Source: a virus
Lineage: Duplodnaviria; Caudoviricetes
Strand: one strand, 5' to 3'
IMG/VR virus record: IMGVR_UViG_3300046058_000046
Coordinates: 1-46,662 of that record
Length of the DNA: 46,662 bases
Position 1 is the first letter of the stretch; each line of letters starts with the position of its first letter. Below the pieces are notes generated by a model. The model ran no database searches and was not told the origin of the DNA. It saw only the letters and a program-made list of their open reading frames with translations. The position numbers and the translations under genes are program-made. Of the stretch, positions 640 through 45,442 are shown in pieces.

Positions 640-3600
640 CTAGTTCTCCAGAACATCATCCAGAAGATCATCGATACGCCGCCGCCCCCCGGGCGGTCCG
701 GCACTCGCCTTTGAGCTGGTGTTTGCACGCGAACGGTCGGCGTTTGCGCGCGAACGCTCCGGGGACGCGTCGGCCCCGGAGCCGCCCACCACGACGTCCG
801 AGGTGCTGACGTCTCCCAGGGAGGCGCTCTCCTGGGGCGTGGGGCGCAGCTCGTCCGGCAGGTTCTCGAAGCGACCCTCCCGGATCATCTTGTACTTGAC
901 CTGGCGTCGCGTGTCGCGAATCACCTTGTCGATCTTCTCGACGTCCATGAGTTCGGGATTTTCGACGTTCAGGTCCATGCGGCGGAGCCGGTTTCGGCTG
1001 AGCTCGCCCGCTCGCCGGACGAAGTCGTGATACTCCTGCCGGGTCATCTGGACGTCGTGCTGCCGAAACTTGAAATGATCCCTCGGCTTCGCCGGCCAGA
1101 AACCATCCTCGTACGGCCGGGGCGGGTTCTGATTCTGCTCGTTGAAGTTCAAGATCAGCCGGTCCAGCTCAGTGGTCCGGTTCTGATTGCGGCGCCAAAG
1201 CGGAAGCGCGTTCTGGTAGAGGAAGTCCGTAAAGGGCGACATTCCCTCATAGCGCTCCAGCGGGCGCCCCCAGAGGTCCACCTTGGGCGGCGGGGCGTAC
1301 GCCTCCAGCGGAAGCGCCTCCTGGCCCATCGTCTGCAGAAAGTCGGCCGCGTACTCACGACCGCTGCTGCCGCGCACCTTGTAGTCCCGACGGACGTCGT
1401 CGGTCGTCTCGATCCCCTTCTGAATCAGGTTCGGGACGAACCCCGTCCCCACGTTGTTGACGATGTTGCCGGCAGTCGCCGGGTACTGGATCACCCGGTA
1501 GATGTCGCTGAGGCCCTGAATGAAGGGGTTATCCTTTGCCGCCTTCATCGGGCTCGACAGGATCTGGCCGAACGTCCACCGCCAGTCCTGTCCCTTCTGA
1601 GCATCCTCGAGCTCATTCCAGAGGTCGACGGTCATCGCCAGCATGCTCCCCAGCGGCTCCACGCGCCGGTAGCTGTAGTAGGTGTCCCCGATCTTGATGC
1701 TGTTCGGCTGCGGGCCCCGCTCGCGAAAGAACCGATACTGGCCCCGATCACGGAAGTCCGGCGCCGACCCGGTCAGGACCGGCTCGTCCTCCTCGTCGTC
1801 CCCCAGGACGAGACTGCCAATCGTGTAGAAGGCCGTCCAGGCAATCGTTTGCTCCGCGGCGTGGCGCGTAAAGTCGCGACGGCGGTACCGGAACGAGGCG
1901 TCGTCGGTCACGCCCATTTCGTAGAGGCCGTGGCCCATCATGCGCCACAGCAAGTTGGCCGCGCCGAACGGCGACTTGCGGATCGAGGTCTTGATGATGT
2001 TCGAGGGCGCATAGAGGAAGGGCACCTTGTACTCGAACATGGCGCCGAGAAAACCCTTTGTGTTGCGAAGCTGCAGCAATTTGTCGGAGATGGGCCCGAG
2101 GTCGCTCTGGAAGGCCAGACCCTGAGCCTTCTCCAGCGCGTTCATCGACGCCTCGCTGAAGGGGTCGCTCACCAGCTCGCTCACCCGCTCGGTAAGGGCC
2201 TCCCCCTCCAGCCCGTCGGCCTTGGCTATGCGGTAGGCCTCCGCGGCGATCTGCATCGAGTGGAAAATCGACTTCTGCATCTGGTCGGCCGCGTTGAGGA
2301 GCCGCCCGGGGATGCGCACGGTTCGGCCGGCGTCCAGCGGGCGCTCCAGGCCCATGTCTTCCAACCGGTCGTTGAGGGCGTCGACGAAGCGCCCCCCGCT
2401 CCCGATCGACACCTCGAACGCCTCTCGGCCCTGCACCTTCTGGTCGGTGGCCTTCTCGCGCCCCTGCGTCTCGAGCTCGTTCTCGAGCACCGGCGCCTCC
2501 AGGTCAAACGCCAGCTGGGCCCGGTGCCAGGCGCGCTCTAGTGTGGGAAGCAACGCCCCCCTCATGAACGCCTCGTGCTCCTCCCTCTCCGGGCTCCGAT
2601 CGTCAACGACGTCGGAAAGCTCGTTTGCCTCCGCAAGCTGCTGCTCGCGCTCGACGGTCGCCTCGTCGCCCAGGAGTTGGCGCCACGCCCTCGGGATCTC
2701 GGCCAGTCGCGGCGACTGGTTGCGGCCGCCGAAGACGCCGTCGGGAATCACCTCGTTGATCGAGGCCTCCACGAGGCGCTGCACCACAAAGTCCCATCCG
2801 GCGTGCACCAGGTTGCCGCCGAAGTTGACCCCCTGCGTCGTCATCGCAGAGAGGATCGAGTTGCGCCAATACTCAAAAAACTTGTCCCGAGCGCTTGCCT
2901 TTGCGGCGGAGGCCAGGCGTACGGCCTGGGCCATACGCTCCCGGTCGCGCACGCCCCCCTCCTCCACCAGCTGCTCGGGGCTGAGGCCCGCCTGGCGGAG
3001 CGCGTCCCGGATGTGGACGACCTGCTCGTTGTGATTGTCGAGCACGCGCCGGCGCTCGGCCTCCGTCTCGGCATTTTCCAACGCCTCGGCCGTTTGCCCA
3101 CCGGGCATGAAAATGCTTTCCAGGAGCCACTCCTTGCGCCGCTCTACCGGCGTCTTCTCGGGATCTCTCCCGGCTGCGAGCTCGCGGGCCGCGTCGGTGC
3201 GCTGCTCGCGGTAGGCGTTCACCATTTGAGCAAAGTGCTCCAGGGCCTCGTCCTCGCCCGACGCCAGGGCCTCCAGGCCCTCTCGATTGATGACCTTTTT
3301 GGCGGCCATGACGTCCGCGGCCCCGTCCATGTCCCCCTTGAAGAGGCGCTCCTTGGTGCCCTCGTAGTCGTCCTCGAGCATTCGACCCGCCTGCTCGCGC
3401 CACTGCTCAAACGACTCCCGATCAGGTCGCCCCTCGAAGTCTTCCCCCTCGGGCCGTTTTTCTTCCGGGATCTCCTCATCCGGCTTTCGTGACTCGTCGA
3501 CCACGTCAACCGTCGAGCGCACCTCTTCGTCGCTCGCCGGGTTGGCCAGCTCGGGACGGCCGGTCTGGGGATCGTCCTGGCGCTTCTCGAGCATCTCGTT

Positions 3601-6600
3601 AAACCGGCGCACGATCTCGTTCTCCTCCGGGAACTGCCGGCCCTCCTGGTCACCTTCCTGATCCCCCTCCTGGGATTGATTTCCCTCCGTCGGCTGCCGG
3701 CTGAATCTGGCTTCTGGGGACCCTCCGCTCGAACCATCATCGTTCCGGGTCGTAGTATCATCTGCCTCCGCTCCCGCATCGGGACGAGAACGTGTAGGCC
3801 CGGTGCGCGTAGGGCCGGTCGAATCGTACGCTTCACCGGTTCCATCGGAGGCTTTTTTCTTTTCTGCCATCTCATATCCGGTGAGAAGCCACGTCTCCCG
3901 GTTCCCGTGCCGGAAAAGGGAGAGAACAGCCTTGTGGCCGTCATATTCGATGTCCACACGCCGAGCTTGCTCGGGGCCGTATTCCCGATCGACCGTTCCA
4001 TAGGCAAGAACCTCCACCATCTTCCGAGCCACTTGCTCACCGTCATTGCTCGTGCGGTCTCTCTTGGCAATGATGTGAGAAACGCCATGCCCCCCGGCAA
4101 AATTCTGGCTCGGATCGCCGGGCTCTCCCCATAGAAAGCTAATCGGCCCTACATCTGGCCGGGTCATGGCTTCTGGGACATCCTCCTGCTCAGCGATCAC
4201 CCGATCCATCGCCCGGGCCCCCTTCCGGAAGGCCTCATCCGGGTCAGAGTCTCCAGACTGCCGGCTAAATTGAACTGCCCCGTTTTGCGCGCGAACGCCC
4301 GTCCCCACGCCCTGTCCCTCCCGCCGGCGCAGATGATCGGCGGCCGCTCGCAACATCTCCCGGAGGTCGGGCTCGCTCATTTCCTGCCCCGTGACGCGGG
4401 CCATCGCGCGCTGTAGGGCTTCCACCAGGCGCTGCCAGAGGTTCGGGTCCAGGTCGACGTCCTCGGCCAGCGTGGCAGCCAGCTCCTCGGCCATAAAGGC
4501 CTTGCTCTCCTCGGTGAGGCTGCCGTCGCCCGTGCGCTCGATCTGATCGGCATACGCCTCGAAGAGGCCGTGCTCCTCAAAGGCCTCCTTCCCAAGGGCC
4601 TCGTAGACGTCGGCAAGAACCTCGGTCTTGTGTTCGCCCAGCAGGCCGTCCAATCCGCGGTGGGCCACCACCTCGTGCATGTAGGCCTGGCGGGCCACCT
4701 CTTCCAGGGACGGGTCGGACTGGTCGGCCACGCGCCGGAGACTCTCGGCCAGAAGGTACACCTGCCCATCCGGACTCGTCAGGGCCGGTTGCTCGAAACT
4801 CTCCCCAATCTGGTCTTGCCAGAACTCGTAGACGACGCGCACATGGTCCGGGAGCGCGTCGGAGTTGGGCACCACCGGCACGCGGGGCAACCCAAAGCGG
4901 TCGGCCGTCTCGTTGGCCGTCTCTCGGACGGTTCGCTCGGCCTCGGAGGCGTCGGCGCCGGACGTTCCTTCCTGTTCAGCGGCCGTTTCCTCTTCTAGCT
5001 GAGTAGGTCGGGACTGATCTGGATCGCCCCTTCTTTCAGATAGATCGTCGTCGGCCCCGGCCCCGCGTTGCTGCTCGGTGCGGCGGGCTCGTCCCTCTCG
5101 GGGCCTTCCCCGGCGTCGCTGGAACGGCGCCTGCTCGACGGGGCCGAGCTCGCCTTCGGACCCCGATCGGTCAGCAGGTCGCTCGCGCGCTTGCGTCGCT
5201 TGCTGGGCATCGGTAGATGTGCGCTGTTCGGAATAGGCCCGATCGATCAGCTCCCCGAGCAAACTGTCGGTGAGGCGAACGCCGGTGACCTCTCGAAATC
5301 GACTGCGCAGGCGCTGCACCTCCTGCGGCTCACCCGTGCGCCGGCGCCGAGGGTACTGGCGCAGGATGTCAATGACCTCTTGCTCGCTTACTTCACGGCC
5401 CACGATCTCTGACAGTTCCTTGGCGTACGTGTCGAGGGCCCGCCCCTCCCTCGAAAGCCAGTTGAGACCCAGCTCGGGATTGTCCCGCCGAAAGTTCGGG
5501 TCGCTCACGCGGTCGAAGCTGCGCGTGGAAATGCGGGGCCCGTCCAGCACCTCGGCCACCAGGTTGTCCTCGTCCTGTACACTCGAGATCGCCTCGCTCT
5601 CTTGGGCCACAGCGACTGCCTCGGCGATCTCGAGCGGGTTGCTGCTCTCGGCGGCCACCCGCTCGAGATACTGGTCGAGACGCAGGCGCTCCCCCTCCGG
5701 CGTGGTGGCTTCCTCGGCCGAGCGGCCGCGGCCCTCCTCTAGGGCTTCAGCCTCATTGGCCAGGTATTCGGCCACAACACGGTTGTAGTTTGACGAGCGG
5801 CCGTCCACCTGCCGACCGGTCTCCAGGTTGGTCACCTCGATGGTGGCTCCGTCCTCTCCGCCCCTCGGGTCGATCCCGTAGCGTCCATCTTCGTCGCGCC
5901 TCGTGGGCAGCTCCGGCTGTTCTCGGATCTCCCGGCCCGTGGCCTCCTCTACGTCCCGAATCGCCTCATCAAGCCGCTGTCGGGCCTCAAACGACGCCTC
6001 GGCACTTCGCTCTTCAGCGACGGCAGCTCGGGCGTTCTCGAGTCGCTCCCTGAGCTCGCGACTGGCGTCCTCGGACTCCTCCAGGGCCTGTTGGGCCTCG
6101 TCAGCGCGCCCGATGTCGCGGGCCTGGCGCTGCAGCCGGCGAAGCCGGGCCTCCGCGTCGCGTCGTCGTTTGGGGTCGGCCCGCTCGTGGCCCCGCTCCT
6201 CGGCGTAGCGCTGACGGGCCACGTCGCGCGTGGCGTCCCGGATGGATTGTTCTAGGTTTTCAGTGTCTCCATCCGTTTCTTGGAGGCGATTTCGAGCAGA
6301 AGCAACTCGGTCTGTTTCCTCTCGCGTAAGATGCTCGGCACGGGACCCCCCGCGCTCGTAGAACTCGTCGATCTCGCGGTTGACTTGCTCGGCCGTAGCC
6401 CGCTCAGTAGCGTCGGCGTCGGGCGCTGCAGGAGCTTCCTCCTCTGCTCGTGCAGGTGGTCCCTCCACATCTGGGTCACCCGCTGATTGAGCAGGCGGGT
6501 CTTCATCGCCTCGATCACGAGCTGAAGCTTCAGCAGTTTGATTTTGAACATCACTCTCGTCCAGGTCTGATTCTAAGGTCTGTTGGGCGTCGCGCGCTTC

Positions 6601-9003
6601 TCGCCTTCGATCGGGCGCCTGTTGCCGACGGTTTCGCTCGATCTCCCGGGCGGCCTCCAGGCCGGCCTCGGCGCTCTGCACCTGCTCGACGGCGTCGGTG
6701 ACGGCGGTAGAGAGGCCGCGGCCCACGTCCTCCTCGAACAGCGTGCCGGTCTGTGGTTCCTCTTCCTGCTGTTGCTCGCCGGCCTCCTCGGTCTCTCCCT
6801 CGGGAAAGAGCGTTTCCTGATCGCCGCTGCGGCGCTGAATCTCGGCGTTCACGGCCTGCCGGACGTGCTCGTTCTCTGCATCCTCCCGGAGCGTGGCCAA
6901 TTCCTCGTCCGAAGCATCCTCGAGGACACTGCGGAGCTGCGTGCGGGCCTCCTCGGCCTCGGTTTCGGCCTCCCGACGGCGCTGTTCGGCTTCTTGAACG
7001 CCCTCGTCCACCTGCTCCTCGGGGCGCGTCTGCCTGCGGCGGCCCATGTCCGGATCTAAGGAGCCCTGCTCCACGCGCCGCCCCATCTCATCGTGCACCG
7101 CCTCCAGCGTTTCGGTGTCGTCGGCAGAGCGGGCCTGCTCCTCGAGCCGGGACAGCTCCTCCGGCGCGACGTCGGCAAAGGGCCGCTCCTCCGTCTCGGG
7201 GTCCGCCTGTTCCTCTTCCGCCTGGACGTTCTCTGTCCGAGGTTCGGGGGCCGCATCCGTATCCTGTTCGGGTTCTACATCGGCGGCCGGTGCTTCGGCC
7301 CCTTCCGGAGCAGCCGTCCCCTCTCCCCTTTCCTCTTCCGTTTGCGCGCGAACGTCCTCCCCAGGGGTCCCCTGTGGCTCGCCCCCGACCTGGTCGGCCC
7401 GATCGGCCGCCGGCGCCTGATTCGGTGGGGCTGGCTCGCCCTGCGCCTGTTGCTCGCCCGTCCGCCGCTCCATCTCCCCGAGGACCACGCCGGCCCGCAC
7501 CGGGTCGGTCTCCCCGGCCGTGGCCTCCTCGTACAGCTGGGCCAGCTCCTCGTCGGTGGCTCCCTGCACCTCTTCTTCAAGGGCGCCGGTGTCCACTTGT
7601 CCCTCGGGATCGGCCACCTCGTACTCCCCCCGGGCCGCAGCCCGGAGGCGCTCGCGATCGGTCCCCCCTTCGGGATCTCTTGCCCTCGACCCAGCTCCTC
7701 GCCGCCCCCCGGCAAGCGTCGTAATCGCGTTGAGAAGAAAGCCAACACCTCCTCCCGTCTCAGCGGCTTCTCGAACCCCCTTCAGTGGACCACGTCCTGG
7801 ATCGAACTCCCGAGCGGCCAAATTCCGCATCACCTCTCCTGCGGTCTCCTGAGAAGCTTCTTCCAGGGCACCGATGCCAACCTGGAGCGCCTTTCGCCGC
7901 AATCGCTCGGGAACGGCGCGAGAGAGGGCTCTCTCGACAGGGAGAATTTCACTCGCACCGGCCACCGCGGCAAGAGGCGCGCTTTGCTGCACCTCCTCCG
8001 CAGTGGCCCCTTCCGATGGGGGTCGGTCACGAAGCTCGGCCTGCCGCCGCTCCCGTCGGGCCTGCCCAATCATTTCGCCCTCGCTCCCTGCGATGCCCAG
8101 TATGCCCCCCACAGGAAGACTCAATGGGCCAGACGCCGCCGACCCGGCAATGAATGGAGCCACGCTCCCGAGTCCCTCCAGTGTCCGCATGACAAACTGC
8201 CGGCGCTCTTTGGAATTGACCTCAGGCAAGCGCTGTTCGGCAAACCGGCGCACGCCTTCCGCGAGTTCGGCCTCTGTGCTCTCTCCTTCCAGCGTCTCTC
8301 GAATGCGCCGCCGCTGGGCCCGAGAAATCTCTCGGTGTCGCTTTACCTGCGGACTTTCTCCCTCTACCCGCTCCGCGGCCGCTCCTGAGCGTTGAGCGGG
8401 AGCGGGAATGGCACTGCTCCCCTCAATCATGGCGGCCGTCATATCGGCGGCCCCCCGAACGGGGGCAGTGAGATATTCGAGGGCACTCTGGACAGCTGTT
8501 TCCTCGGGCTGCTGTAAGTGATCAGAGACGTCCCCCTCCCGGTTCGTCGGATCGGGCGGCTGAGGATCCGGGACGCCGGAAATGTTGGGCTCCGCCACGG
8601 CTTCTCCGTCCCCGGTTCGGAATGCGGCCTCGCCGGCATCAGAGAGAACACGGTCGATCCGACGCCGCGGATCGCGTCGCTGGTCACCCTCCTGGCTTTC
8701 GTCGTCGTCCGTGTGCATACCCGCGTCCCCGGCGCCTCCGTCTTCGGAAAGCCGCTGGTTGATCCGCTCCAACGGATTCCGCTGGGCAGACTCCTGTTGG
8801 GTGGACGAGTCCGGTTGTGCCGCTCCGTCCCCTCCCGATGACTGTTGGGCCTGCATGGAGGTCCGGAGGGCATTCTCGACCGTGACCGGCCCGCTGAAAA
8901 GACCCGAGTCCGGGTGGGCCTGCGAGCCACCCGCGGCCGTCCCCCCCTGCTGCTCAAGCCGTCGCCGGATGCGCTCGAGAGGATCTCGCTCGTCGGTTTC
9001 CAT
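640..9003 (-). CDS. Large polyvalent/ejection protein (2787 aa) with zincin-like peptidase, PBECR1-like RNase and LPD38-like C-terminal region
   Basis: HEVVAHRGL...EELAA zincin-like motif at ~4340-4900. ISFLWG...GGHGVSHIIAKR...TWLLTGYE resembles PBECR1 at ~3870-4240. C-terminal NSIKIGDTYYSYRRVEPLG resembles internal-virion/LPD38 regions. Last gene of the late operon. Confidence 0.8.
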   Translation of the reverse strand: METDERDPLERIRRRLEQQGGTAAGGSQAHPDSGLFSGPVTVENALRTSMQAQQSSGGDGAAQPDSSTQQESAQRNPLERINQRLSEDGGAGDAGMHTDDDESQEGDQRRDPRRRIDRVLSDAGEAAFRTGDGEAVAEPNISGVPDPQPPDPTNREGDVSDHLQQPEETAVQSALEYLTAPVRGAADMTAAMIEGSSAIPAPAQRSGAAAERVEGESPQVKRHREISRAQRRRIRETLEGESTEAELAEGVRRFAEQRLPEVNSKERRQFVMRTLEGLGSVAPFIAGSAASGPLSLPVGGILGIAGSEGEMIGQARRERRQAELRDRPPSEGATAEEVQQSAPLAAVAGASEILPVERALSRAVPERLRRKALQVGIGALEEASQETAGEVMRNLAAREFDPGRGPLKGVREAAETGGGVGFLLNAITTLAGGRRGAGSRARDPEGGTDRERLRAAARGEYEVADPEGQVDTGALEEEVQGATDEELAQLYEEATAGETDPVRAGVVLGEMERRTGEQQAQGEPAPPNQAPAADRADQVGGEPQGTPGEDVRAQTEEERGEGTAAPEGAEAPAADVEPEQDTDAAPEPRTENVQAEEEQADPETEERPFADVAPEELSRLEEQARSADDTETLEAVHDEMGRRVEQGSLDPDMGRRRQTRPEEQVDEGVQEAEQRRREAETEAEEARTQLRSVLEDASDEELATLREDAENEHVRQAVNAEIQRRSGDQETLFPEGETEEAGEQQQEEEPQTGTLFEEDVGRGLSTAVTDAVEQVQSAEAGLEAAREIERNRRQQAPDRRREARDAQQTLESDLDESDVQNQTAEASARDRGDEDPPAQSAGDPDVEGPPARAEEEAPAAPDADATERATAEQVNREIDEFYERGGSRAEHLTREETDRVASARNRLQETDGDTENLEQSIRDATRDVARQRYAEERGHERADPKRRRDAEARLRRLQRQARDIGRADEAQQALEESEDASRELRERLENARAAVAEERSAEASFEARQRLDEAIRDVEEATGREIREQPELPTRRDEDGRYGIDPRGGEDGATIEVTNLETGRQVDGRSSNYNRVVAEYLANEAEALEEGRGRSAEEATTPEGERLRLDQYLERVAAESSNPLEIAEAVAVAQESEAISSVQDEDNLVAEVLDGPRISTRSFDRVSDPNFRRDNPELGLNWLSREGRALDTYAKELSEIVGREVSEQEVIDILRQYPRRRRTGEPQEVQRLRSRFREVTGVRLTDSLLGELIDRAYSEQRTSTDAQQATQARERPADRSGSEGELGPVEQAPFQRRRGRPREGRARRTEQQRGAGADDDLSERRGDPDQSRPTQLEEETAAEQEGTSGADASEAERTVRETANETADRFGLPRVPVVPNSDALPDHVRVVYEFWQDQIGESFEQPALTSPDGQVYLLAESLRRVADQSDPSLEEVARQAYMHEVVAHRGLDGLLGEHKTEVLADVYEALGKEAFEEHGLFEAYADQIERTGDGSLTEESKAFMAEELAATLAEDVDLDPNLWQRLVEALQRAMARVTGQEMSEPDLREMLRAAADHLRRREGQGVGTGVRAQNGAVQFSRQSGDSDPDEAFRKGARAMDRVIAEQEDVPEAMTRPDVGPISFLWGEPGDPSQNFAGGHGVSHIIAKRDRTSNDGEQVARKMVEVLAYGTVDREYGPEQARRVDIEYDGHKAVLSLFRHGNRETWLLTGYEMAEKKKASDGTGEAYDSTGPTRTGPTRSRPDAGAEADDTTTRNDDGSSGGSPEARFSRQPTEGNQSQEGDQEGDQEGRQFPEENEIVRRFNEMLEKRQDDPQTGRPELANPASDEEVRSTVDVVDESRKPDEEIPEEKRPEGEDFEGRPDRESFEQWREQAGRMLEDDYEGTKERLFKGDMDGAADVMAAKKVINREGLEALASGEDEALEHFAQMVNAYREQRTDAARELAAGRDPEKTPVERRKEWLLESIFMPGGQTAEALENAETEAERRRVLDNHNEQVVHIRDALRQAGLSPEQLVEEGGVRDRERMAQAVRLASAAKASARDKFFEYWRNSILSAMTTQGVNFGGNLVHAGWDFVVQRLVEASINEVIPDGVFGGRNQSPRLAEIPRAWRQLLGDEATVEREQQLAEANELSDVVDDRSPEREEHEAFMRGALLPTLERAWHRAQLAFDLEAPVLENELETQGREKATDQKVQGREAFEVSIGSGGRFVDALNDRLEDMGLERPLDAGRTVRIPGRLLNAADQMQKSIFHSMQIAAEAYRIAKADGLEGEALTERVSELVSDPFSEASMNALEKAQGLAFQSDLGPISDKLLQLRNTKGFLGAMFEYKVPFLYAPSNIIKTSIRKSPFGAANLLWRMMGHGLYEMGVTDDASFRYRRRDFTRHAAEQTIAWTAFYTIGSLVLGDDEEDEPVLTGSAPDFRDRGQYRFFRERGPQPNSIKIGDTYYSYRRVEPLGSMLAMTVDLWNELEDAQKGQDWRWTFGQILSSPMKAAKDNPFIQGLSDIYRVIQYPATAGNIVNNVGTGFVPNLIQKGIETTDDVRRDYKVRGSSGREYAADFLQTMGQEALPLEAYAPPPKVDLWGRPLERYEGMSPFTDFLYQNALPLWRRNQNRTTELDRLILNFNEQNQNPPRPYEDGFWPAKPRDHFKFRQHDVQMTRQEYHDFVRRAGELSRNRLRRMDLNVENPELMDVEKIDKVIRDTRRQVKYKMIREGRFENLPDELRPTPQESASLGDVSTSDVVVGGSGADASPERSRANADRSRANTSSKASAGPPGGRRRIDDLLDDVLEN
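3764..3863 (+). ncRNA. Candidate antisense cloverleaf small RNA nested in the giant gene
   Basis: TAGTAT -10-like hexamer at 3753-3758. Closing stem GCCTCCG(3764-3770)/CGGAGGC(3846-3852), three internal hairpins, then TTTTTTCTTTT. Confidence 0.5.
4995..5210 (-). CDS. Candidate overprinted small ORF in a linker of the giant gene
   Basis: ATG start in a shifted frame. Its ends use G/C-ending codons where the main frame switches to A/T-ending codons. Confidence 0.3.
   Translation of the reverse strand: MPSKRRKRASDLLTDRGPKASSAPSSRRRSSDAGEGPERDEPAAPSSNAGPGPTTIYLKEGAIQISPDLLS
6252..6551 (-). CDS. Candidate overprinted basic helical protein in a linker of the giant gene
   Basis: MFKIKLLKLQLVIEAMKTRLLNQRV... 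uses CTG/AAG/CAG/ATC/GAG codons while the main frame has GAT GTT CAA AAT CAA ACT GCT. TAGAAT -10-like hexamer at 6575-6570, 18 nt upstream of the ATG. Confidence 0.45.
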   Translation of the reverse strand: MFKIKLLKLQLVIEAMKTRLLNQRVTQMWRDHLHEQRRKLLQRPTPTLLSGLRPSKSTARSTSSTSAGGPVPSILRERKQTELLLLEIASKKRMETLKT

Positions 9004-12911: not shown

Positions 12912-15113
12912 TTAAACCTCCGCCCCCCAAGCGAAATCGACATCCTGCCCCGGATCGGAGTCTACGTTGATGTCGAAGTTCGACGCGCCGACGCCTGTGA
13001 TGTAGTAGTAGCCGGCACCCCCAAGATCCCCGAGCGCAGTGATGCGGATGTCCTCCGGGTCGGGCGTCACGTCGAGGCCATGGGCCACCGTGACGGATGT
13101 ACTTCCGCTGCTGAGCGTGGCCTGGCCGCTCCCTGTCGTTTGTACTGCCGCTCCGGTGTTCACTCGAAAATCGGCATAGGTTGTATCCCGCCGGTCAGAA
13201 AGCCAGAGTGTCCAGTTTATATCGACAGGTTCTCGACCGGTGCGCTCGGTAAGCTCCCATACAACGTTTGTGCGGGTTCCGTCATCGAAATGGGCACGAT
13301 TTTGTGAGACCTTGTGCTCGCTGGTTTCTGAGCCTGCTGGTGCCCAGCTTAGTATCGGGCTTCCATCTTTAACCCGCCCTTTAGCCGCCTCGATGCGGAG
13401 CGTGCCGCCTGCAGGAATAGTGTCTGTTCCCTCTGCATATTTTAGCCCCGTCGGGTATACGACTTGCGCCCAGTTGTCTTTCTGCTCAATGGGAGCCTTG
13501 TAACGGGATCTACCATCCCGAACCAAGAGGCTTGAATTTGATGGCGTCAAGTCTACCGCCGCCGTGTTGCCGTCTACTGTTGATTTTACGACCGAAAAAT
13601 CATCTCCTACACTCTTTATGCCAACATCAGCCCCGCCTATGTTTGATCCGTGGACTAGGGTATGCGCACTATTTGCATTAGATTCTAAGACAATGGACTG
13701 ATCCACATCCTGCTCTAAGTGCATTTTGCTTATAACTGCGTGTATAGTGTCAAGATACACGCCAACACTATTCCCTGTAGTTCCCCAATCTGACAGATAT
13801 GTATCGTTGGAGTCTATCCATATCCCATACTCATCATTGATATTCGCATAGCCTTGTCCTGTGCACCGAATCTGACTAATCGGGCCCCCGCGATTTTTTA
13901 GGCCCTCGTAGTGTAGTCCATGTCGATTACGGGTTACCCAGCAGTTGTGATGATTAATGTGAAAAATGGTCCCGAGCCCAGAAATGCCGTAGTCAAATTC
14001 ACCAACTAGGACATCATCAAACACCACGTCGTCTATGGGCGCCGTTTTGGAATCTCCGTACCGGCCCGTGTCGTCTTGCGCATCGAGGAAAATCCCGTCT
14101 CGCGAATTGGCGTTGGCGCTGACAAGGCCGAACTCGCGAAAGCGAGTCCCCCTACACGTGGCTGTCAGCGCCGCCAGCCGGAATGCGTCGGTGCCTGCGG
14201 TGGAGGGCTCGTGGATGATCTTCGTGGGCACATCATCTTCATCCCACTTGTTCCAGGTTCGGGGTCGCCCTTGGCCTTCGACAATGAAGGGGTATCCATC
14301 AAGCGTCACAGTCCCTGTCATGCGCGAGAGGCCGCGGGGCAGAATAATTTTGCCGCCGCGCTCCTCCTGCTGCAAGTAGTTGACCGCTGGCTTGATGCCT
14401 GCCGTCCCGGTACCATCCTCATACGGGGAGGACGGCGAGCCATCCCCGGACGAGATCCACCATTTGGCTTTGACCGCCCCCGGGTACTTCTCCGATACGT
14501 CCGGATCTTTCGCGGCGAGCGCGTCGGCGACCGATCCCCCGTAGGCTTGCACCTGTACGTCGTAATCCGACGTGGACTCCTCGACCACCTCGACGGTGCT
14601 GTCAAAGGTGACCGCGTTCCCGTTGTAGGGAAGCTGCTCCTTCGGCACCTCGACTACGCCCCCGCCATTGTTTTTCGCGTAGTCGTGTGCAGCCTGCACC
14701 GCCGTCTCAAAGTCCGTAAAGTTGGCGGGAGTGAACACCTTCGCATTAGCGCTGACCGGCATCGACACGATGTTGCCGACCTGCGTCACCGAAAGCGAGA
14801 TGCGTGGCCCAATCGGTGCCCATCCGCCCTGGGTGGACCCAGTCCCGGTATCTTGGTAGTATTGGGACTGGTCCAAGACATAGACCACCGAGTCGTCGCC
14901 GGTCGACGCGGGTAGGTCGCCCGCGCTCTGCACGGTATCGTCCACCGCGCCGATGGCGCCGATGTCCTTCGCTGTCTGCTCCACGTCGTCGCGAAACGCG
15001 CGCGCCTCGCTGCGCGCCAGTGCAGCGCTGGAGTGGGCCTCCTCGAGCGCGGTGCGAAAATCGCGAAGCTCTTGGTCGTTCTCGAGCAACGTAACGTCCG
15101 TGGGGGTCGGCAT
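12912..15113 (-). CDS. Tail spike/receptor-binding protein with parallel beta-helix (pectin-lyase-like)
   Basis: AGIKPAVNYL...GGKIILPRG-type helix cap and repeated G-I-x-I beta-helix turns. C-terminal SVTVAHGLDVTP module. Confidence 0.8.
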   Translation of the reverse strand: MPTPTDVTLLENDQELRDFRTALEEAHSSAALARSEARAFRDDVEQTAKDIGAIGAVDDTVQSAGDLPASTGDDSVVYVLDQSQYYQDTGTGSTQGGWAPIGPRISLSVTQVGNIVSMPVSANAKVFTPANFTDFETAVQAAHDYAKNNGGGVVEVPKEQLPYNGNAVTFDSTVEVVEESTSDYDVQVQAYGGSVADALAAKDPDVSEKYPGAVKAKWWISSGDGSPSSPYEDGTGTAGIKPAVNYLQQEERGGKIILPRGLSRMTGTVTLDGYPFIVEGQGRPRTWNKWDEDDVPTKIIHEPSTAGTDAFRLAALTATCRGTRFREFGLVSANANSRDGIFLDAQDDTGRYGDSKTAPIDDVVFDDVLVGEFDYGISGLGTIFHINHHNCWVTRNRHGLHYEGLKNRGGPISQIRCTGQGYANINDEYGIWIDSNDTYLSDWGTTGNSVGVYLDTIHAVISKMHLEQDVDQSIVLESNANSAHTLVHGSNIGGADVGIKSVGDDFSVVKSTVDGNTAAVDLTPSNSSLLVRDGRSRYKAPIEQKDNWAQVVYPTGLKYAEGTDTIPAGGTLRIEAAKGRVKDGSPILSWAPAGSETSEHKVSQNRAHFDDGTRTNVVWELTERTGREPVDINWTLWLSDRRDTTYADFRVNTGAAVQTTGSGQATLSSGSTSVTVAHGLDVTPDPEDIRITALGDLGGAGYYYITGVGASNFDINVDSDPGQDVDFAWGAEV

Positions 15114-15335: not shown

Positions 15336-18314
15336 TCAGACGTCGGTTTCGGCGATGAGGACGAGCGTGGTCGCCTGCGTCTGGTCCTGCGATTGCACCA
15401 GGTCGGGCGCGTCTAGGTAGGCCGGGTATTCGTGCGCCTGGTGGTCGCGGAGGGTCCGATTCCGCAGGTCCCACTCTATAAAGATCGATTCGATAGACTG
15501 CCCGGTCAGGGCCCGGCCTCGAATGTCGAGGACAAACCCTGTGCCGAGGCCGGCGTCCGGGACCACCCCGCCGCTTAGCTGGCCCGCCCGGAGCGTTTCG
15601 CGCTCGAGCTTGATGTATTCGCGCTGCGGATCGGTCGCCACCAGAGACAGGTCCACCTCTTCCAGCGGGGTCGGCTGCCGCAACTGCACCTGCCGCATGC
15701 GCTTCAAGCTGCCGAGCGCGCCGGTCTGGAGGACGGCCGTCTGGATGTTGACCTGCCCCTCCCCCTCAGTGGCCACCTCGCGGACCAGCGCCCCGTCGGC
15801 CCGGGCGGCGTATTCCTCGCCGGGCCGGAGCGCAAAGTCTTGACGCTGTCGCCGCAGGGCGCTCCACGCCCCCTGGTCGATCGAATAGTTCCAGACGCGC
15901 CCGCCGGCGGCGACCCACACGTCGTTTCGGCCGCGCTGCACGTTTTTGTAGTGGCCGACAACCGTATCCGGGCCGAGAGAGCGCAAAAACTCCTCGCCGA
16001 CGTCGTTGAGCGGGTTCGAGAGGGGCGGCTGTTGAAGCTGTGGGGCGAGCTCATGCAGGCCCCCGTCCAGGCACGCCACGACGCTTCCGTCCGCGCTGGC
16101 AACCGCCGCGCGGCTCACGGCGCCCTGATCGTTGGTAAGCACGTCGACGCGCTGGACGAGCGGGGACCCCTCGCCGACGCGAAGAACGCGGACGCTGTCC
16201 TGCTGAAAGGACAAAATGGGGTATTGGCCGTACTGCCCCTCCGACACTTCTTGGCCGACGGCCTGAAGCGCGAGCACCCGGTCGTCCTGCGACCGGGCAT
16301 CGGAAACAAGGTTCTCGGCTGGCCGCTCCATCGGACGGTACGGCTCAGACCACACGATGAGGTTTGGCTCGATGCTCAACTTCTCATTTTGCCCGTCGGT
16401 GACGGCATGCGTGTCGTCGGCTACCGACTGAATTTTCCACTGGACATCGCTCTTTTGATTGTTTGAGGACTGCGCAAACGCCCGGATGGTGCCCCCGTCG
16501 TTGTTGTTGTCGACGCTTACAAACACCTCATTTTCAATGCGGGTGTATTCGGCCTCGGCCGGGTCGAACCCGGAAAGGGTAATAGAACCATCATCCTCAA
16601 AACTGTTCGTTCCGGTGTCGCCCGTCGTGCCGCCAGCGATAAAGGCGCTCACGGTGCTTTTGTCGGATACGAGCACGTTCTTGTCTGCATCCAGAATGGC
16701 AACGCGAACAAATGCCTCTGCGCTTGCTCTATCGTTTTGTCCTTGCGTCTCCACCTCGGCCTTGATGTAGTAGTCGACCGTCACCTCGACCACGTCTTGC
16801 GAACTACCGGTCACGTCGGCCTCGGAAAGCCGGGATACTTTGTCGGTATTTATCTGGTCTGAATTGCCTTGTGAGACGTCGTTTTCGTCCAGCGATTCCC
16901 CCGCACTAAGGGGGCCGGTCCACCCGTTTTCGCTGCCAACGTCGAGCACGGCGCCGTCGCTGGACGCGACGGTCAGGTCGAGCGGGTCCTTTACGTCGCT
17001 GTACGCAAACGTCGCCGCGGCGGCCTCCTCGAACGAGCGGTCGCTCCCCGGTAGGAGAATGGATTGCCACGTTGCCGACGAAAGCGGGTCGCCTTCGGTG
17101 TAGTCGGTGGATTTATACATTTCCCACCGCAGGGCCCGCGGGTCCGGGTACCACACCAAGTTGCTCCGTAGCGAAGCCGCCTCGGCCGAGGCGGTATCAT
17201 AGGGCAGCGGGGCCGAGTTGCGGACCACCTCCCCGTCGGTCGTCTCTACCCAGACGGTAAGAAGGACCCACTGGTCGTTTCCGTTCGCGTTCTCCCGGCC
17301 CTCTTTCCAGCGGAGGATTTTCTTCAGCGGCGGCTGTTTCAGATCATACGCAAGGTCGCCGAGCAGGAGACGCGCATTGTAGTTGTACGAGGCGCCTGCC
17401 GAAAGTCGGTGGTGTTGTATGGCCGACCCCTCAAAATCTCTTTGTGTAAGCAAATCTTCGGTTGTCCCCTCCCACGAGGCCCCGAACCCTACCTCCAGCG
17501 TCGAAATACTGGTGAGGCGGTATCCGGGCTGTCGTCGAGCGGGGATGGTGGTTGTGGTGTTGCCTTGGTCGTCGGTCTTCTGAACAGGGGCGTGGCCAAC
17601 CACAAGGAGCTTGCTTATGCGCTGCTTCCAATAGTCGGGCAGGGCCTCGGTGAATCGCAAGATTTTTGCACGCACCTTGAACGGCCCGCTCTCGCTCACT
17701 TCGACGAGTGATCCGGCTGGCCCGACGGCACCAGTGTCCAGTTCCCAAGCAAAACGAAACAGATACGTGCCTGCGTCCAGGCCGCCATCCCCATTCGTAA
17801 GGGTTGTCGACACGCTCATTATCGGCAATTCGGGCCAACCGTATTCGGCGACCGTGTCGCCGTGTAGGACGAGGCCCTGCTCCGGAGCACCGACGCCTGG
17901 GCCGCTGGTGATGGCGATGTGGACAATCTGCTGCCCCTGTGAGAACGACGCCCGGCGCGTGTCGTCAGCCGTGTCGAAGGTATGCACCTGTTTCTCGGTG
18001 TACCCCTGCCCCGGATCAATGATGTAAACGCCGTCGGCCTTGAGGGCGATGAGCCGGTTTAGAGACTGGTCCGGGTCGCCGGCCAGGTCGGCAAAGCGCG
18101 ACATGTTTGATCGGCGCTGCCACCCGAGCGAGAGGATGCCCGTCGACGTGCCGCGACGGTCGGCCACTTTCGGCACCTCCCACACCGCCCCGTCCCCGCG
18201 CCCGGTCGGCACCAGGTCCCACAGCAGCCGACACGCGCCGCTAGGCAATTGGTGGCCGGGCGTCGTGAGGTCCAACCCGCGAATCGGAAATGTAGTCCTC
18301 TGGCGCTCGCCCAT
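15336..18314 (-). CDS. Probable tail hub/nozzle (stabilisation) protein
   Basis: ~990 aa, beta-rich, FPIRGLDL N-terminus, position after the adaptor genes. ATG at 18314 preferred as start. Confidence 0.6.
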   Translation of the reverse strand: MGERQRTTFPIRGLDLTTPGHQLPSGACRLLWDLVPTGRGDGAVWEVPKVADRRGTSTGILSLGWQRRSNMSRFADLAGDPDQSLNRLIALKADGVYIIDPGQGYTEKQVHTFDTADDTRRASFSQGQQIVHIAITSGPGVGAPEQGLVLHGDTVAEYGWPELPIMSVSTTLTNGDGGLDAGTYLFRFAWELDTGAVGPAGSLVEVSESGPFKVRAKILRFTEALPDYWKQRISKLLVVGHAPVQKTDDQGNTTTTIPARRQPGYRLTSISTLEVGFGASWEGTTEDLLTQRDFEGSAIQHHRLSAGASYNYNARLLLGDLAYDLKQPPLKKILRWKEGRENANGNDQWVLLTVWVETTDGEVVRNSAPLPYDTASAEAASLRSNLVWYPDPRALRWEMYKSTDYTEGDPLSSATWQSILLPGSDRSFEEAAAATFAYSDVKDPLDLTVASSDGAVLDVGSENGWTGPLSAGESLDENDVSQGNSDQINTDKVSRLSEADVTGSSQDVVEVTVDYYIKAEVETQGQNDRASAEAFVRVAILDADKNVLVSDKSTVSAFIAGGTTGDTGTNSFEDDGSITLSGFDPAEAEYTRIENEVFVSVDNNNDGGTIRAFAQSSNNQKSDVQWKIQSVADDTHAVTDGQNEKLSIEPNLIVWSEPYRPMERPAENLVSDARSQDDRVLALQAVGQEVSEGQYGQYPILSFQQDSVRVLRVGEGSPLVQRVDVLTNDQGAVSRAAVASADGSVVACLDGGLHELAPQLQQPPLSNPLNDVGEEFLRSLGPDTVVGHYKNVQRGRNDVWVAAGGRVWNYSIDQGAWSALRRQRQDFALRPGEEYAARADGALVREVATEGEGQVNIQTAVLQTGALGSLKRMRQVQLRQPTPLEEVDLSLVATDPQREYIKLERETLRAGQLSGGVVPDAGLGTGFVLDIRGRALTGQSIESIFIEWDLRNRTLRDHQAHEYPAYLDAPDLVQSQDQTQATTLVLIAETDV

Positions 18315-18340
18315 CGCGTCGGGAAACAAGGGTCGTGAAA

Positions 18341-25345: not shown

Positions 25346-25393
25346 AAAGAAAAAAAGCCGGTGCGCGTCTCATCTGCGCTTCACGGGGCCGGC
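25346..25393 (-). terminator. Intrinsic terminator upstream of portal
   Basis: GCCGG...GCGC...GCGC.CCGGC stem followed by TTTTTTTCTTT on the minus strand. Confidence 0.65.
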
Positions 25394-26082: not shown

Positions 26083-26277
26083 ATGGCTGAATATCGCGTC
26101 TTCCTTGCCGATTTTAATCTTACTTTTGAGGCCGAATCCGTAAAGCAAAGTGGCTCCATGATTTACTTCTTTCCAGATGAAGCCTCTACTTCTTCTCAAA
26201 CACCAGTAAACGACGCCGTCGCCGTATTCCGAAAAGAAGAAATCGAGGGATTCGTTAACACAGAAGCCTTTAACTAG
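26083..26277 (+). CDS. Small low-GC moron protein
   Basis: AT-rich, opposite strand to the operon, stop overlaps the terL stop. Confidence 0.65.
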   Translation: MAEYRVFLADFNLTFEAESVKQSGSMIYFFPDEASTSSQTPVNDAVAVFRKEEIEGFVNTEAFN

Positions 26278-28415
26278 GAAAATCGTGCCATCCCCGGCGT
26301 CGGCGTCTTTGTGGTCCGGTCCCGCTCGATGAGCTTCGGCGGGTCCATGTGCTGCAGGGCCAGCCACACGGCCCCGGCCCGCGAGATGACAAGGTCGTCG
26401 TGCTGGCCCTCCTTCGCCCCCAGTCGGCCGTCGTCCTTCACCTCGTAGTAGTCCATCTCGTCGCAGGCCAGATCAGAACGCTCCACGTACGCCTCGTCTC
26501 GTAGCGTCGCGTTGAGGGCATCCATGATCATCGACTTCGACTCCGGGCTCGTGTGAAAACCAAATTTTCTGTATGTCTCGTCGTTCTTCTTATCTCGCTC
26601 GACGGTGTGAAATAGATTCCGCTCGTACACCTCACGGATCTCGTCGAGGACGGTCAGGCTGTGTTCGGTGTCCGGCTCGATCGAGTCGTCGTTTCGCTTT
26701 CGGTTAAGGCTGTTCTTCTCGATCGCCAAAAGCGCCCCCTCGTACCAGGCGCACAGCTGCACGGCGTACCACGCCGCCAAGTCCTGGTCCATGTGGCCTC
26801 GGTACTGGGCTCCCACCTCCGGCTCCGCCCCCCAGAGCATTGGCGCGCGGTCGATGACGCTCACCACGTGGTAGTCGCCTCCCTCCCAGCGGGCGCCAAT
26901 GTCCATGAACGCGCAGTAGCGTCCTCGCACCCGGTAGCGCACCAGATCCAAGAGGCCGCCATAGTCGTCCCCCGGCTGGCGCCAGACTTTGATGTCGCCC
27001 TGGTCGTGCGGCTCGAAGGACAGATCCTCCAGCGCATTTTCGCCTTTTCGCCCCAGCGCCTGCATCCGGCCGCGCTCCGGCGCCGGCTTGCAGGTCCTGC
27101 GGGCGTTCTCCACATAGTTCGGCGAAAAGACGCGGCGGCCGGTGCTCTGGAACGCTTCGTCGGCGGTCGTCGGGTACTCGGCCTTCATGCGCCACTCGGC
27201 CGAATGGCTGGGCATGTTGCCCTTGCGGTACCGGTACCACCGAATGCCCTCGATCGTAGCTCCCTGGTCCCAGAGCCACCATTCGTACTCGGCCCAGGAG
27301 CGGACGAACTGGTTGACGTCCTTGACGGCCATCGTGTAGTCCTCGATCTCGTGCCAGCCGACGAAGAAGTTCGAGTAGGGGGAGTCACCCCGCTCAGCGC
27401 TCAGGTACTCGCGGTGAAAGTAGTTGCCCACGCCCTTCGCCGTCGACTCGCGAACGCAGAGCGTGTACGACCCATCCACCAGGCCACCCTCCAGGCTCTG
27501 CGCCAGGTTTTCCGCGTTTTGATGCGTCGTCGACTTCCAGAAGCCGACCTCCGAGAGATGAAGCATGTGGTACGTGTAAGCCCGCACGGCATCCGGGTTG
27601 CGCGTCGACGCCACACCGAGGTTTGCCTCCCGCTCGGGGACGCGCTTCACCGTCGTCATGCCCTGGTACGGCTTGAAGGTGATCGACCCGAAGGCGTTCG
27701 GGTAAAAGCGCCGCAGCGTGTCGTACATGCCGCGGATATGGAGCGCCTGGCCTTGGACGTCGGCCACAATCGCAATATTCCACCCTTCCCGGCGCAGCTG
27801 CTGCACCCAGGCCATAAAGAGCTGGACGAGGGTCGAGCCGCCCCACTGGCGCGCCTTCACGAGATTCCACCGCACAGGCTGGCCACTGAAGAAGTCCTCC
27901 AGGAGGGCCGCCAGGAAGCGGCGCTGCGGCGGCCGCAGGACGAAAGCCTGAAAAACCTCCTGCTCCTCGTCCTCATAGTCGACCGCAGCGCCCCAGTCGC
28001 CGTCGCTGGTGTCAAGCTCGACGTTCTCCTCATCGCCCCGCTTGACCTGGATCGTGCAGGCCGCCTCGAACCAGAACTCTGGATCGTAGAACGCACGGGC
28101 CCGGAGGAAATGCTGATAGAGGGCCGCGTGCTCAGCGTCCGAGAGGCCGTATTCCTCCTTGCACTGCTCGAAGGTGCCGGCCGCCCGGATCTTCTCCGCG
28201 AGCTCGCTCTCGTGGAACGGCTCGGGCAGGTACACTGGCGGCTCGTCGTCGGCCATCTGCAGGGGCTCCCGGCTCCCGTAGCAGCCAATGCCCCGGGCCG
28301 GGTCGTACTCGGCCGTCCACCGCGTCCACCGCTTCTCGTTCTCCACCGCCATCGCCTCAATCCGATCGGCAGACACCTCTTCGTCCGGGGCAGTATCAGC
28401 GACAGGAGCGTCCAT
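26274..28415 (-). CDS. terL: Terminase large subunit
   Basis: Walker A VKARQWGGST, Walker B LHLSEVGFW, ESTAKG coupling motif, and nuclease motifs AFMDIG...HDDLV. ATG at 28415 preferred as start. Confidence 0.95.
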   Translation of the reverse strand: MDAPVADTAPDEEVSADRIEAMAVENEKRWTRWTAEYDPARGIGCYGSREPLQMADDEPPVYLPEPFHESELAEKIRAAGTFEQCKEEYGLSDAEHAALYQHFLRARAFYDPEFWFEAACTIQVKRGDEENVELDTSDGDWGAAVDYEDEEQEVFQAFVLRPPQRRFLAALLEDFFSGQPVRWNLVKARQWGGSTLVQLFMAWVQQLRREGWNIAIVADVQGQALHIRGMYDTLRRFYPNAFGSITFKPYQGMTTVKRVPEREANLGVASTRNPDAVRAYTYHMLHLSEVGFWKSTTHQNAENLAQSLEGGLVDGSYTLCVRESTAKGVGNYFHREYLSAERGDSPYSNFFVGWHEIEDYTMAVKDVNQFVRSWAEYEWWLWDQGATIEGIRWYRYRKGNMPSHSAEWRMKAEYPTTADEAFQSTGRRVFSPNYVENARRTCKPAPERGRMQALGRKGENALEDLSFEPHDQGDIKVWRQPGDDYGGLLDLVRYRVRGRYCAFMDIGARWEGGDYHVVSVIDRAPMLWGAEPEVGAQYRGHMDQDLAAWYAVQLCAWYEGALLAIEKNSLNRKRNDDSIEPDTEHSLTVLDEIREVYERNLFHTVERDKKNDETYRKFGFHTSPESKSMIMDALNATLRDEAYVERSDLACDEMDYYEVKDDGRLGAKEGQHDDLVISRAGAVWLALQHMDPPKLIERDRTTKTPTPGMARFS

Positions 28416-28452
28416 AAAAGAAGTGTTCGCGTGCGAACGTGCCCGCCCCCCC

Positions 28453-28809
28453 TCACGCGAGCAGGTACCAGGCCGCCAGGATGACGAGCGCCAATACGGC
28501 GCCGGCGAGCCGCCAGACCCAGGGCCGGGCCACGAGCGGAATTTCCCGCCGAAACCCATTCACGACGTCCCACTCCTCCCCGGTCACCGGAAAGCGGAGG
28601 GCATACACGGGCTTTTTCTCGCCTCCGATTGAAAGCCAGATTGGACGGGTGTGGCCGTCCGCTCGAACACCGTTGACGTGGTCGCAGACAAATTGCGCCA
28701 CGGCCAGGGGATCATCCAGGTCGCCTATCTGCCAGTAGTCGCCCGCACGCTTGACGTAGTCAATCTGCATGGTCGGTCGATCGGTCGACGTTGTCTGAAG
28801 AAAAATCAC
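28453..28809 (-). CDS. Hypothetical protein with C-terminal TM helix
   Basis: C-terminal WRLAGAVLALVILAAWYLLA; ATGA overlap with the upstream gene. Confidence 0.6.
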   Translation of the reverse strand: MIFLQTTSTDRPTMQIDYVKRAGDYWQIGDLDDPLAVAQFVCDHVNGVRADGHTRPIWLSIGGEKKPVYALRFPVTGEEWDVVNGFRREIPLVARPWVWRLAGAVLALVILAAWYLLA

Positions 28810-40613: not shown

Positions 40614-40748
40614 AACGGTTATTTGGTTGTGACCAGGCCTCCGCTGTCTCAGCAGCGGGGGCATTTCTGTAGCTGTCGCTACGAGCCCAGAGCCGGGTCG
40701 GGTGAAAAGTGTGCACCAGCTGTCGCTTTTCGGTGCGCGAGGGTGTCG

Positions 40749-40830
40749 AGCGGGCGGCAGGATTCGAACCTGCGTCCCTCCGTTGGTGCCCTAGGACACG
40801 GAGTACATGAAACCGCTCTGCTACGCCCGC
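40749..40830 (-). tRNA. tRNA-Gly-like RNA with enlarged (16-nt) anticodon loop, no encoded CCA
   Basis: Acceptor stem GCGGGCG/CGCCCGC plus U73, D arm, stem CTCCG/CGGAG, 4-nt variable loop, T arm GCAGG-TTCGAAT-CCTGC. Confidence 0.8.
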
Positions 40831-45348: not shown

Positions 45349-45389
45349 AAACGGGTGGTGATGTGTGTGCAACATCACCACCCGTTTTT
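45349..45389. terminator. Bidirectional host terminator
   Basis: AAACGGGTGGTGATGT / ACATCACCACCCGTTT perfect 16-bp stem with T-runs on both strands. Confidence 0.8.
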
Positions 45390-45442
45390 GAATGAATCCG
45401 GTCTCCGCCAGAGGTAAAGAGCGGAGACGACGCTGCACCCAT

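Follow-up and report, generated by a model that had tools for sequence, protein, structure and literature searches.

The locus considered here raises the question of what is encoded antisense to a phage gene, directly behind a predicted ribonuclease (RNase) domain, and what its product might do there. It lies in the IMG/VR virus record IMGVR_UViG_3300046058_000046, analysed over its whole length of 46,662 bases (hereafter the window), inside a minus-strand gene for a polyvalent protein of 2787 amino acids (aa). An element at 3764-3863 on the plus strand is antisense to this gene and ends about 10 nucleotides (nt) from the sequence encoding the PBECR1 domain (PF18809). A sequence-only reading of the window had proposed a tRNA-shaped cloverleaf RNA that binds, inhibits or guides the adjacent nuclease. 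Our analysis reveals that the structured element is real and the cloverleaf is not; the element belongs to a structured RNA family that is real, tied to PBECR1 and apparently undescribed. Judged from sequence, 3764-3863 most likely encodes a small RNA, which would serve as the antidote of the PBECR1 domain.

Fold and covariation of the antisense element

Protein-first scans yielded 46 loci; seven duplicates were left out and 39 entered the search with a covariance model built from an alignment of homologous elements, in which 26 of these loci are training rows. The alignment of 27 elements is almost gap-free, with a consensus of a closing stem P1 (7 bp), CUCC, P2 (11 bp with an 11-nt loop), CGUA, P3 (about 11 bp with an 8-nt loop), two nucleotides and the returning strand of P1. 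In the window the predicted RNA starts with the 5' strand of P1 (3764-3770, +; 92.6% of alignment cells paired, 7/7 pairs compensatory), followed on the same strand by junction J1/2 (CUCC, 3771-3774), in which C3774 is invariant, and by hairpin P2 (3775-3807, pairing 3775-3785 with 3797-3807; 86.2% paired, 9/10 pairs compensatory), whose conserved 11-nt loop occupies 3786-3796 (G3786 97% and A3790 95% conserved). Junction J2/3 (CGUA-G, 3808-3812) contains U3810, A3811 and G3812, invariant in 37/37 rows; hairpin P3 (3812-3843, pairing 3812-3823 with 3832-3843 around an 8-nt loop at 3824-3831) is 87.0% paired with 10/11 pairs compensatory. The 3' strand of P1 (3846-3852) is placed by folding and by pairing in the homologues, and the U-tract at 3853-3863 forms the predicted 3' end.

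The consensus fold together with three loop-loop pairs is 87.4% paired over the alignment cells, and 26/31 pairs have changed on both sides; the covariation value of 0.618 compares with 0.233 in shuffles and with at most 0.226 when partners were slid. Under our own tree-aware null (37 rows, 60 simulations), 11/28 helix pairs reach E<0.05 and no non-helix pair does. The loop-loop (pseudoknot) pairs are 80.5% paired, show no compensatory change and are not significant under this null. On the antisense strand of the gene 85 G-U pairs are counted versus 19 A-C, an excess indicating that the structured strand is the antisense strand. These data support a P1-P2-P3 three-way junction with two long hairpins. 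The single sequence is unremarkable by itself: its folding z is -1.29, and 22/200 shuffles fold equally well. The minimum-energy fold of the window element has two arms, not three.

Several parts of the sequence-only reading are borne out by this analysis, namely the closing stem 3764-3770 / 3846-3852 (pair probabilities 0.88-1.0), the U-tract, which is the sole place on the plus strand of the window where 10 or more of 11 consecutive nucleotides are T, and the last motif of the domain, WLLTGYE (3891-3871), adjoining it. The long hairpin that it had mentioned as an alternative fold is P2 itself, with the pairing given above. The two small hairpins that it preferred (3772-3784 and 3791-3809) have a pair probability of 0.02, with 54% and 62% of cells paired over the 27 homologues, and its structure as a whole is 72.4% paired on the same homologues. 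Its tRNA-like cloverleaf with a CCC-centred, anticodon-like loop is not supported, the homologues showing two arms and no T-loop motif.

The candidate promoter (3729-3758, +) consists of a -10 TAGTAT at 3753-3758, just as proposed, and a poor -35 near 3729-3735. The absence of a clear -35, conceded in that reading, is confirmed by a best score of 7/12, and the consensus scan calls no promoter in the window. Among the homologues, a sigma70-type promoter scores at least 8/12 in 30/40 units versus 5.3% of background windows, and it stands at the same position, TTGnnn-17-TAnnnT, with TTG at the -35 in 35/40 and a spacer of 17 in 36/40. An antisense promoter in front of the unit is accordingly conserved in most homologues, on one strand and at a fixed distance from the element, and is weak in the window itself (7/12) and in its closest relative, L027. 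The U-tracts of the homologues are variable (2-11 T of 14). In run X1, one contig tracks window positions 3781-3870 and then continues with 77 letters that are unrelated; in this relative the element may have a different sequence upstream.

Association with PBECR1

The covariance model matches 37/39 loci, each time antisense and directly behind the domain, so that the antisense stem architecture, whose recurrence behind PBECR1 homologues had been suggested as a check, is found there with covarying helices. Eleven of the 37 matches lie outside the training set, many of them close to training rows, and one (L046) is weak at 25.5 bits. The two unmatched loci end inside the domain, without downstream DNA. 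Scanned with the model, the window gives one significant match, 3759-3860, at 105 bits. RNA-only patterns picked out 16 stretches in viral contigs, 14 of them behind PBECR1 (eight new, two of these eight near-identical) and two by chance; because these patterns were taken from our own alignment, they are biased towards known types. The segment appears portable, as the reading had claimed: identity is about 18% in the flanking protein, whereas the domain reaches 52% and the RNA 56%.

Genomes were surveyed by phylum. In the first phylum (150 genomes), PF18809 occurs in two, both with the adjoining RNA, one of them being a training locus. In the second (150 genomes), the RNA is present at 4/9 PF18809 places; its 12 RNA places comprise these four, one second unit, three behind PBECR1-like sequences below the Pfam cut-off, one behind a degenerate domain, two solo copies and one weak match. 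Four of the five PF18809 places without a match fold into another antisense three-way junction followed by a U-tract. The third phylum (301 genomes) contributed one new PF18809 locus, with the RNA at 54 bits. A shorter second class, missed by model R1, was seen behind PBECR1 at L092, L094, L097 and L099; its junction has a long P1, a short P2 and a P3 with a 13-nt loop.

In three phages, the model phages PBC5 and Atu_ph08 and a Campylobacter phage, the covariance model found no match behind PBECR1; promoters scoring 8.5-10 are present there, with an unremarkable folding z. The protein of the Campylobacter phage (L070) ends at PBECR1, and two small antisense hairpin units were noted by eye downstream of 1842, behind a TATAAT and with a folding z that is not significant. 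At the peptide level, P0007-P0011 have two tandem linker units behind one domain, the first of which differs between close relatives, and P0023, P0091 and P0137 have two PBECR1 domains per protein, each with its own linker unit.

Selection at the RNA level

Codon-position conservation over the 18 in-frame loci is 0.76/0.70/0.72 in the element versus 0.77/0.87/0.50 in the last 26 codons of the domain. Fourfold-degenerate sites reach a conservation of 1.0 at four places in the element, versus 0.39-0.60 in the domain; the invariant A3811 falls on such a third codon position of the protein frame. At L029, L058 and L061 the open reading frame (ORF) stops a few codons past the domain and the element is intact in non-coding DNA; where an ORF ends at the domain, no linker peptide is encoded. 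By an eye count, no more than 12 residues follow the last motif in 19/150 proteins, some of them maybe cut by contig ends. Taken as sequence patterns, these observations support selection at the RNA level rather than the peptide level. One of these loci (L029:653-1700, from a Tepidisphaerales assembly) is a short stand-alone PBECR1 gene with a convergent RNA, next to a tRNA, and is perhaps a prophage remnant.

Second and solo copies

Two loci carry two units. The second unit of L031 and the RNA of L024 are 98% identical, the domains of these two loci only 53%; likewise, the second unit of L059, which has its own TTGACA promoter, is 97% identical to the RNA of L037, the domains being only 49% identical. 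The two units within each of these loci are about 60% alike. Solo copies with a promoter were found in bacterial contigs, all three intergenic: between HicAB and YafQ genes (L085:1501-1602) and between an AAA-DUF4143 gene and BrxL (L087:1501-1599), two places neighbouring toxin-antitoxin or BREX genes, and between the housekeeping genes for a zinc dehydrogenase and an aminotransferase (L075:1501-1603). A further copy lies inside another large ORF without adjoining PBECR1 (L079:1190-1288). No PBECR1 was found in the L085 and L087 genomes or in the L079 provirus, assemblies that may be incomplete. Immunity genes of polymorphic toxins are kept in the same way by genomes without the toxin partner. 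The position of the RNA is predicted by an RNase-type domain and copies are kept without that partner, a behaviour resembling that of immunity genes.

Antisense units behind other domains

The 16 other domains that Pfam finds in the collected loci provided an internal control. Behind 3/3 MuF_C (L006, L041 and L084), 2/2 PBECR3 (L024 and L035) and 4/4 LPD3 domains (L013, L035, L041 and L081), an antisense promoter scoring 9-11 is followed by a closed stem ending in U's. These units differ in sequence from the PBECR1 RNA and are candidates for further RNA families. MuF_C and PBECR3 are PBECR families; LPD3 has no profile likeness to PBECR1. None of the seven other domains, namely ART, ddrB-ParB (two), LPD23, NlpC/P60, DUF6782 and a helicase domain, has a unit, their promoter scores being 6-7.5 and their folding z values -1.0 to +1.3. 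In the one case of phage Mu, no unit lies behind the domain of gp30, which Iyer et al. call inactive in the available text (PMC5512222).

Proposed function and alternative explanations

We propose that a host-type promoter of its own drives transcription of the element, and that the resulting small RNA would attach to the neighbouring PBECR1 domain and keep the predicted RNase off; that the RNA is an antitoxin of this kind is, in our judgement, probable. The polyvalent protein would be packaged and injected. Because the RNA is antisense and has its own sigma70-type promoter, it could be made independently of late transcription, in the lysogen as well as immediately once the DNA has entered a cell, and it would shield a cell that makes or receives the RNase as long as the phage genome is intact. 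The conserved unpaired bases would form the surface facing the protein, with the helices counting only as shape, and extra and solo copies would have been captured as immunity to RNases encoded by other phages. A wider scheme, which we regard as somewhat short of probable, is that each BECR-type RNase domain travels with an antisense RNA gene in its linker codons as one cassette; the injected RNase would then work like a dead-man switch and kill wherever the phage DNA does not survive to make the RNA, and the RNA genes would be stolen by rivals and hosts as orphan immunity. A deep co-phylogeny of RNA and domain was not found.

An antisense element that is fully complementary to the mRNA in which it is embedded might simply be a silencer in cis that pairs with late mRNA, whether from the same phage or a related one, and so lowers the polyvalent protein or excludes superinfection. 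Its own promoter (weak in the window) and its overlap with an opposite-strand gene agree with such a role, there is precedent in STnc6030, described as antisense to a DNA-injection gene and blocking superinfection in the text available (PMC7067206), and foreign second copies would complement the mRNA of another phage. However, pairing with its own mRNA would leave the sequence free, whereas the loop and junction bases are invariant across distant phages and the helix lengths are fixed; the position follows one domain class wherever that is placed and not gene starts, and the element is kept past the ORF end and as solo copies. We therefore consider a silencer unlikely. The tie between RNA and domain and the conserved, apparently protein-facing bases would also suit an RNA that serves the domain as guide, activator or chaperone, the two forming a small ribonucleoprotein effector, or one that acts as a decoy for a defence protein of the host. 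A guide should have a variable single-stranded spacer, and here the variable bases are paired; solo copies in genomes where the domain was not found fit immunity better, and no Rfam CRISPR repeat matched at 20 loci with E up to 5, so that this possibility, too, is a slim one. Since the variable bases are paired and the fixed ones lie in loops and junctions, a shape read by protein is a better fit than guiding or antisense pairing.

The cloverleaf of the sequence-only reading would make the RNA a tRNA-shaped sacrificial substrate that soaks up an anticodon nuclease. Even if three-dimensional mimicry is included, this is quite improbable, as there are two arms only, their loops measuring 11 and 8 nt, pairing in the putative anticodon arm reaches 62%, the T-loop GTTCRA occurs in 0/18 copies and neither ARAGORN nor Rfam calls a tRNA at the element. 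It might finally be argued that there is no RNA gene at all and that conservation reflects the linker peptide, which does look conserved, or else a hairpin or recombination signal acting as DNA where the module ends; the lack of significance of the single-sequence fold would agree with this. Against it, the synonymous sites are frozen without codon periodicity, compensatory changes alter amino acids, the element is intact out of frame, the linker is predicted to be disordered and the promoter stands at a fixed distance on one strand, which leaves this the most remote of the explanations considered. An RNA antitoxin of the PBECR1 domain is the reading we retain. If true, it would answer how a phage survives making PBECR domains, extend the small set of RNase classes that have RNA antitoxins to the BECR fold, account for the shuffling of the domains between proteins without loss of immunity, and point to a class of RNA genes missed by intergenic-only searches.

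The phage, the polyvalent protein and its PBECR1 domain

According to Pfam, the window encodes portal, SU10 capsid and adaptor, small terminase, CHAP, repressor and integrase proteins; the portal, capsid and terminase genes together with those for the repressor and integrase indicate a temperate phage. The polyvalent protein gene (640-9003, -), defined by ORF calls, lies at the distal end of the virion gene cluster. The sole Pfam family on its product is PBECR1 (aa 1612-1714), at 32.1 bits versus a curated cut-off of 27.6, and the Atlas neighbours are PBECR1 as well. The domain extends over aa 1592-1714 (3862-4230, -), and its residues His1643 (4077-4075) and Thr1708 (3882-3880) occupy the positions of the His/Thr pair that Iyer et al. 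name as the predicted BECR active site (PMC5512222, available text). Structure prediction gives a confident domain, with H52 within helix 49-59 and T117 on the last strand, an active-site feature taken from the same text, and a disordered linker (aa about 1713-1753; 3745-3867, -) with a predicted local distance difference test (pLDDT) value below 50 for model residues 128-150. Among named relatives, the one nearest to the domain (86%) is found in the assembly 'Bacteroidetes bacterium SW_9_63_38'; this relative, acidic proteins and a halite run suggest a salt-loving host.

Elsewhere in the polyvalent protein, a HEVVAH motif at aa 1443 (4654-4677, -) has neither a Pfam family nor an antisense unit behind it; we take it to be the zincin HExxH of the metallopeptidases in polyvalent proteins. 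The window also contains an 83-nt tRNA-Asp(GTC) gene (40748-40830, -), a 13-bp hairpin with a T run after the integrase gene (45352-45390, +) that is likely a terminator, and, as the only strong U-tract of the minus strand, one at about 25346-25356, just upstream of the portal gene. Large ORFs without a Pfam family are located at 26274-28559 (761 aa), 15336-18329 (997 aa) and 12912-15113 (733 aa), all on the minus strand.

Comparison with known systems

No description of the element was found in the literature, subscription journals and supplements not being covered, and Rfam has no match on it in the window and 20 loci, either at the gathering score or at E up to 5. In the available text of Iyer et al. 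2017 (PMC5512222), PBECR domains are reported in up to 26% of polyvalent proteins, which are proposed to be packaged and injected, and mRNA or crRNA targets are proposed without mention of an inhibitor; its main text uses none of the terms 'antisense', 'noncoding' and 'immunity protein'. The window domain is a PF18809 member of this group, with the predicted His/Thr, in a large protein among virion genes. The accessible part of a 2026 BECR classification preprint (10.64898/2026.08.28.747851) mentions no RNA partner, and a Thermus phage preprint (10.64898/2026.04.20.719267), judged by its accessible part, is not relevant.

With tRNA the element shares a 7-bp closing stem and a similar size, but it lacks a T-loop motif and an anticodon arm, and its arms number two instead of three. 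It would resemble STnc6030 of the Salmonella prophage BTP1 as a prophage-borne RNA antisense to late virion genes; as far as the available text goes, STnc6030 is 786 nt long, is expressed in the lysogen and is proposed to act by base pairing (PMC7067206). The present element, in contrast, is about 95 nt long, has a fixed covarying fold and is tied to one domain family, and in place of a sequence free to drift with its target it has invariant unpaired bases and frozen synonymous sites.

A precedent from prophages is AbiF, an RNase-type toxin that, according to the accessible part of the report, is neutralised in trans by direct binding of the neighbouring RCd22 RNA (10.1101/2025.04.15.648962). 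AbiF belongs to the Cas13-linked Abi_2/AbiD/F family described there, whereas the protein here is PBECR1 and the RNA has no Rfam family. In the type III systems ToxIN, CptIN and TenpIN, a small structured RNA binds and inhibits an endoribonuclease (PMC12283969, available text), and the proposed pair of an RNase and an inhibiting structured RNA would be alike in this respect. The type III RNAs described there are tandem pseudoknot repeats upstream of the toxin gene, on the same strand and in one operon with a terminator between them. The element consists of one three-way junction, has a promoter of its own and in most cases lies within coding sequence, and it is downstream and antisense at all cognate loci; a single unit is present in the window, and two loci have two. 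Only PF18809 matches the protein, with no ToxN, CptN or TenpN family, and the proposed toxin, unlike those of type III systems, is a BECR-fold domain of a virion polyprotein. The PBECR1-linked RNA family would accordingly represent a variant of RNA-antitoxin logic, carried antisense within the coding sequence behind the very domain that it is proposed to restrain.
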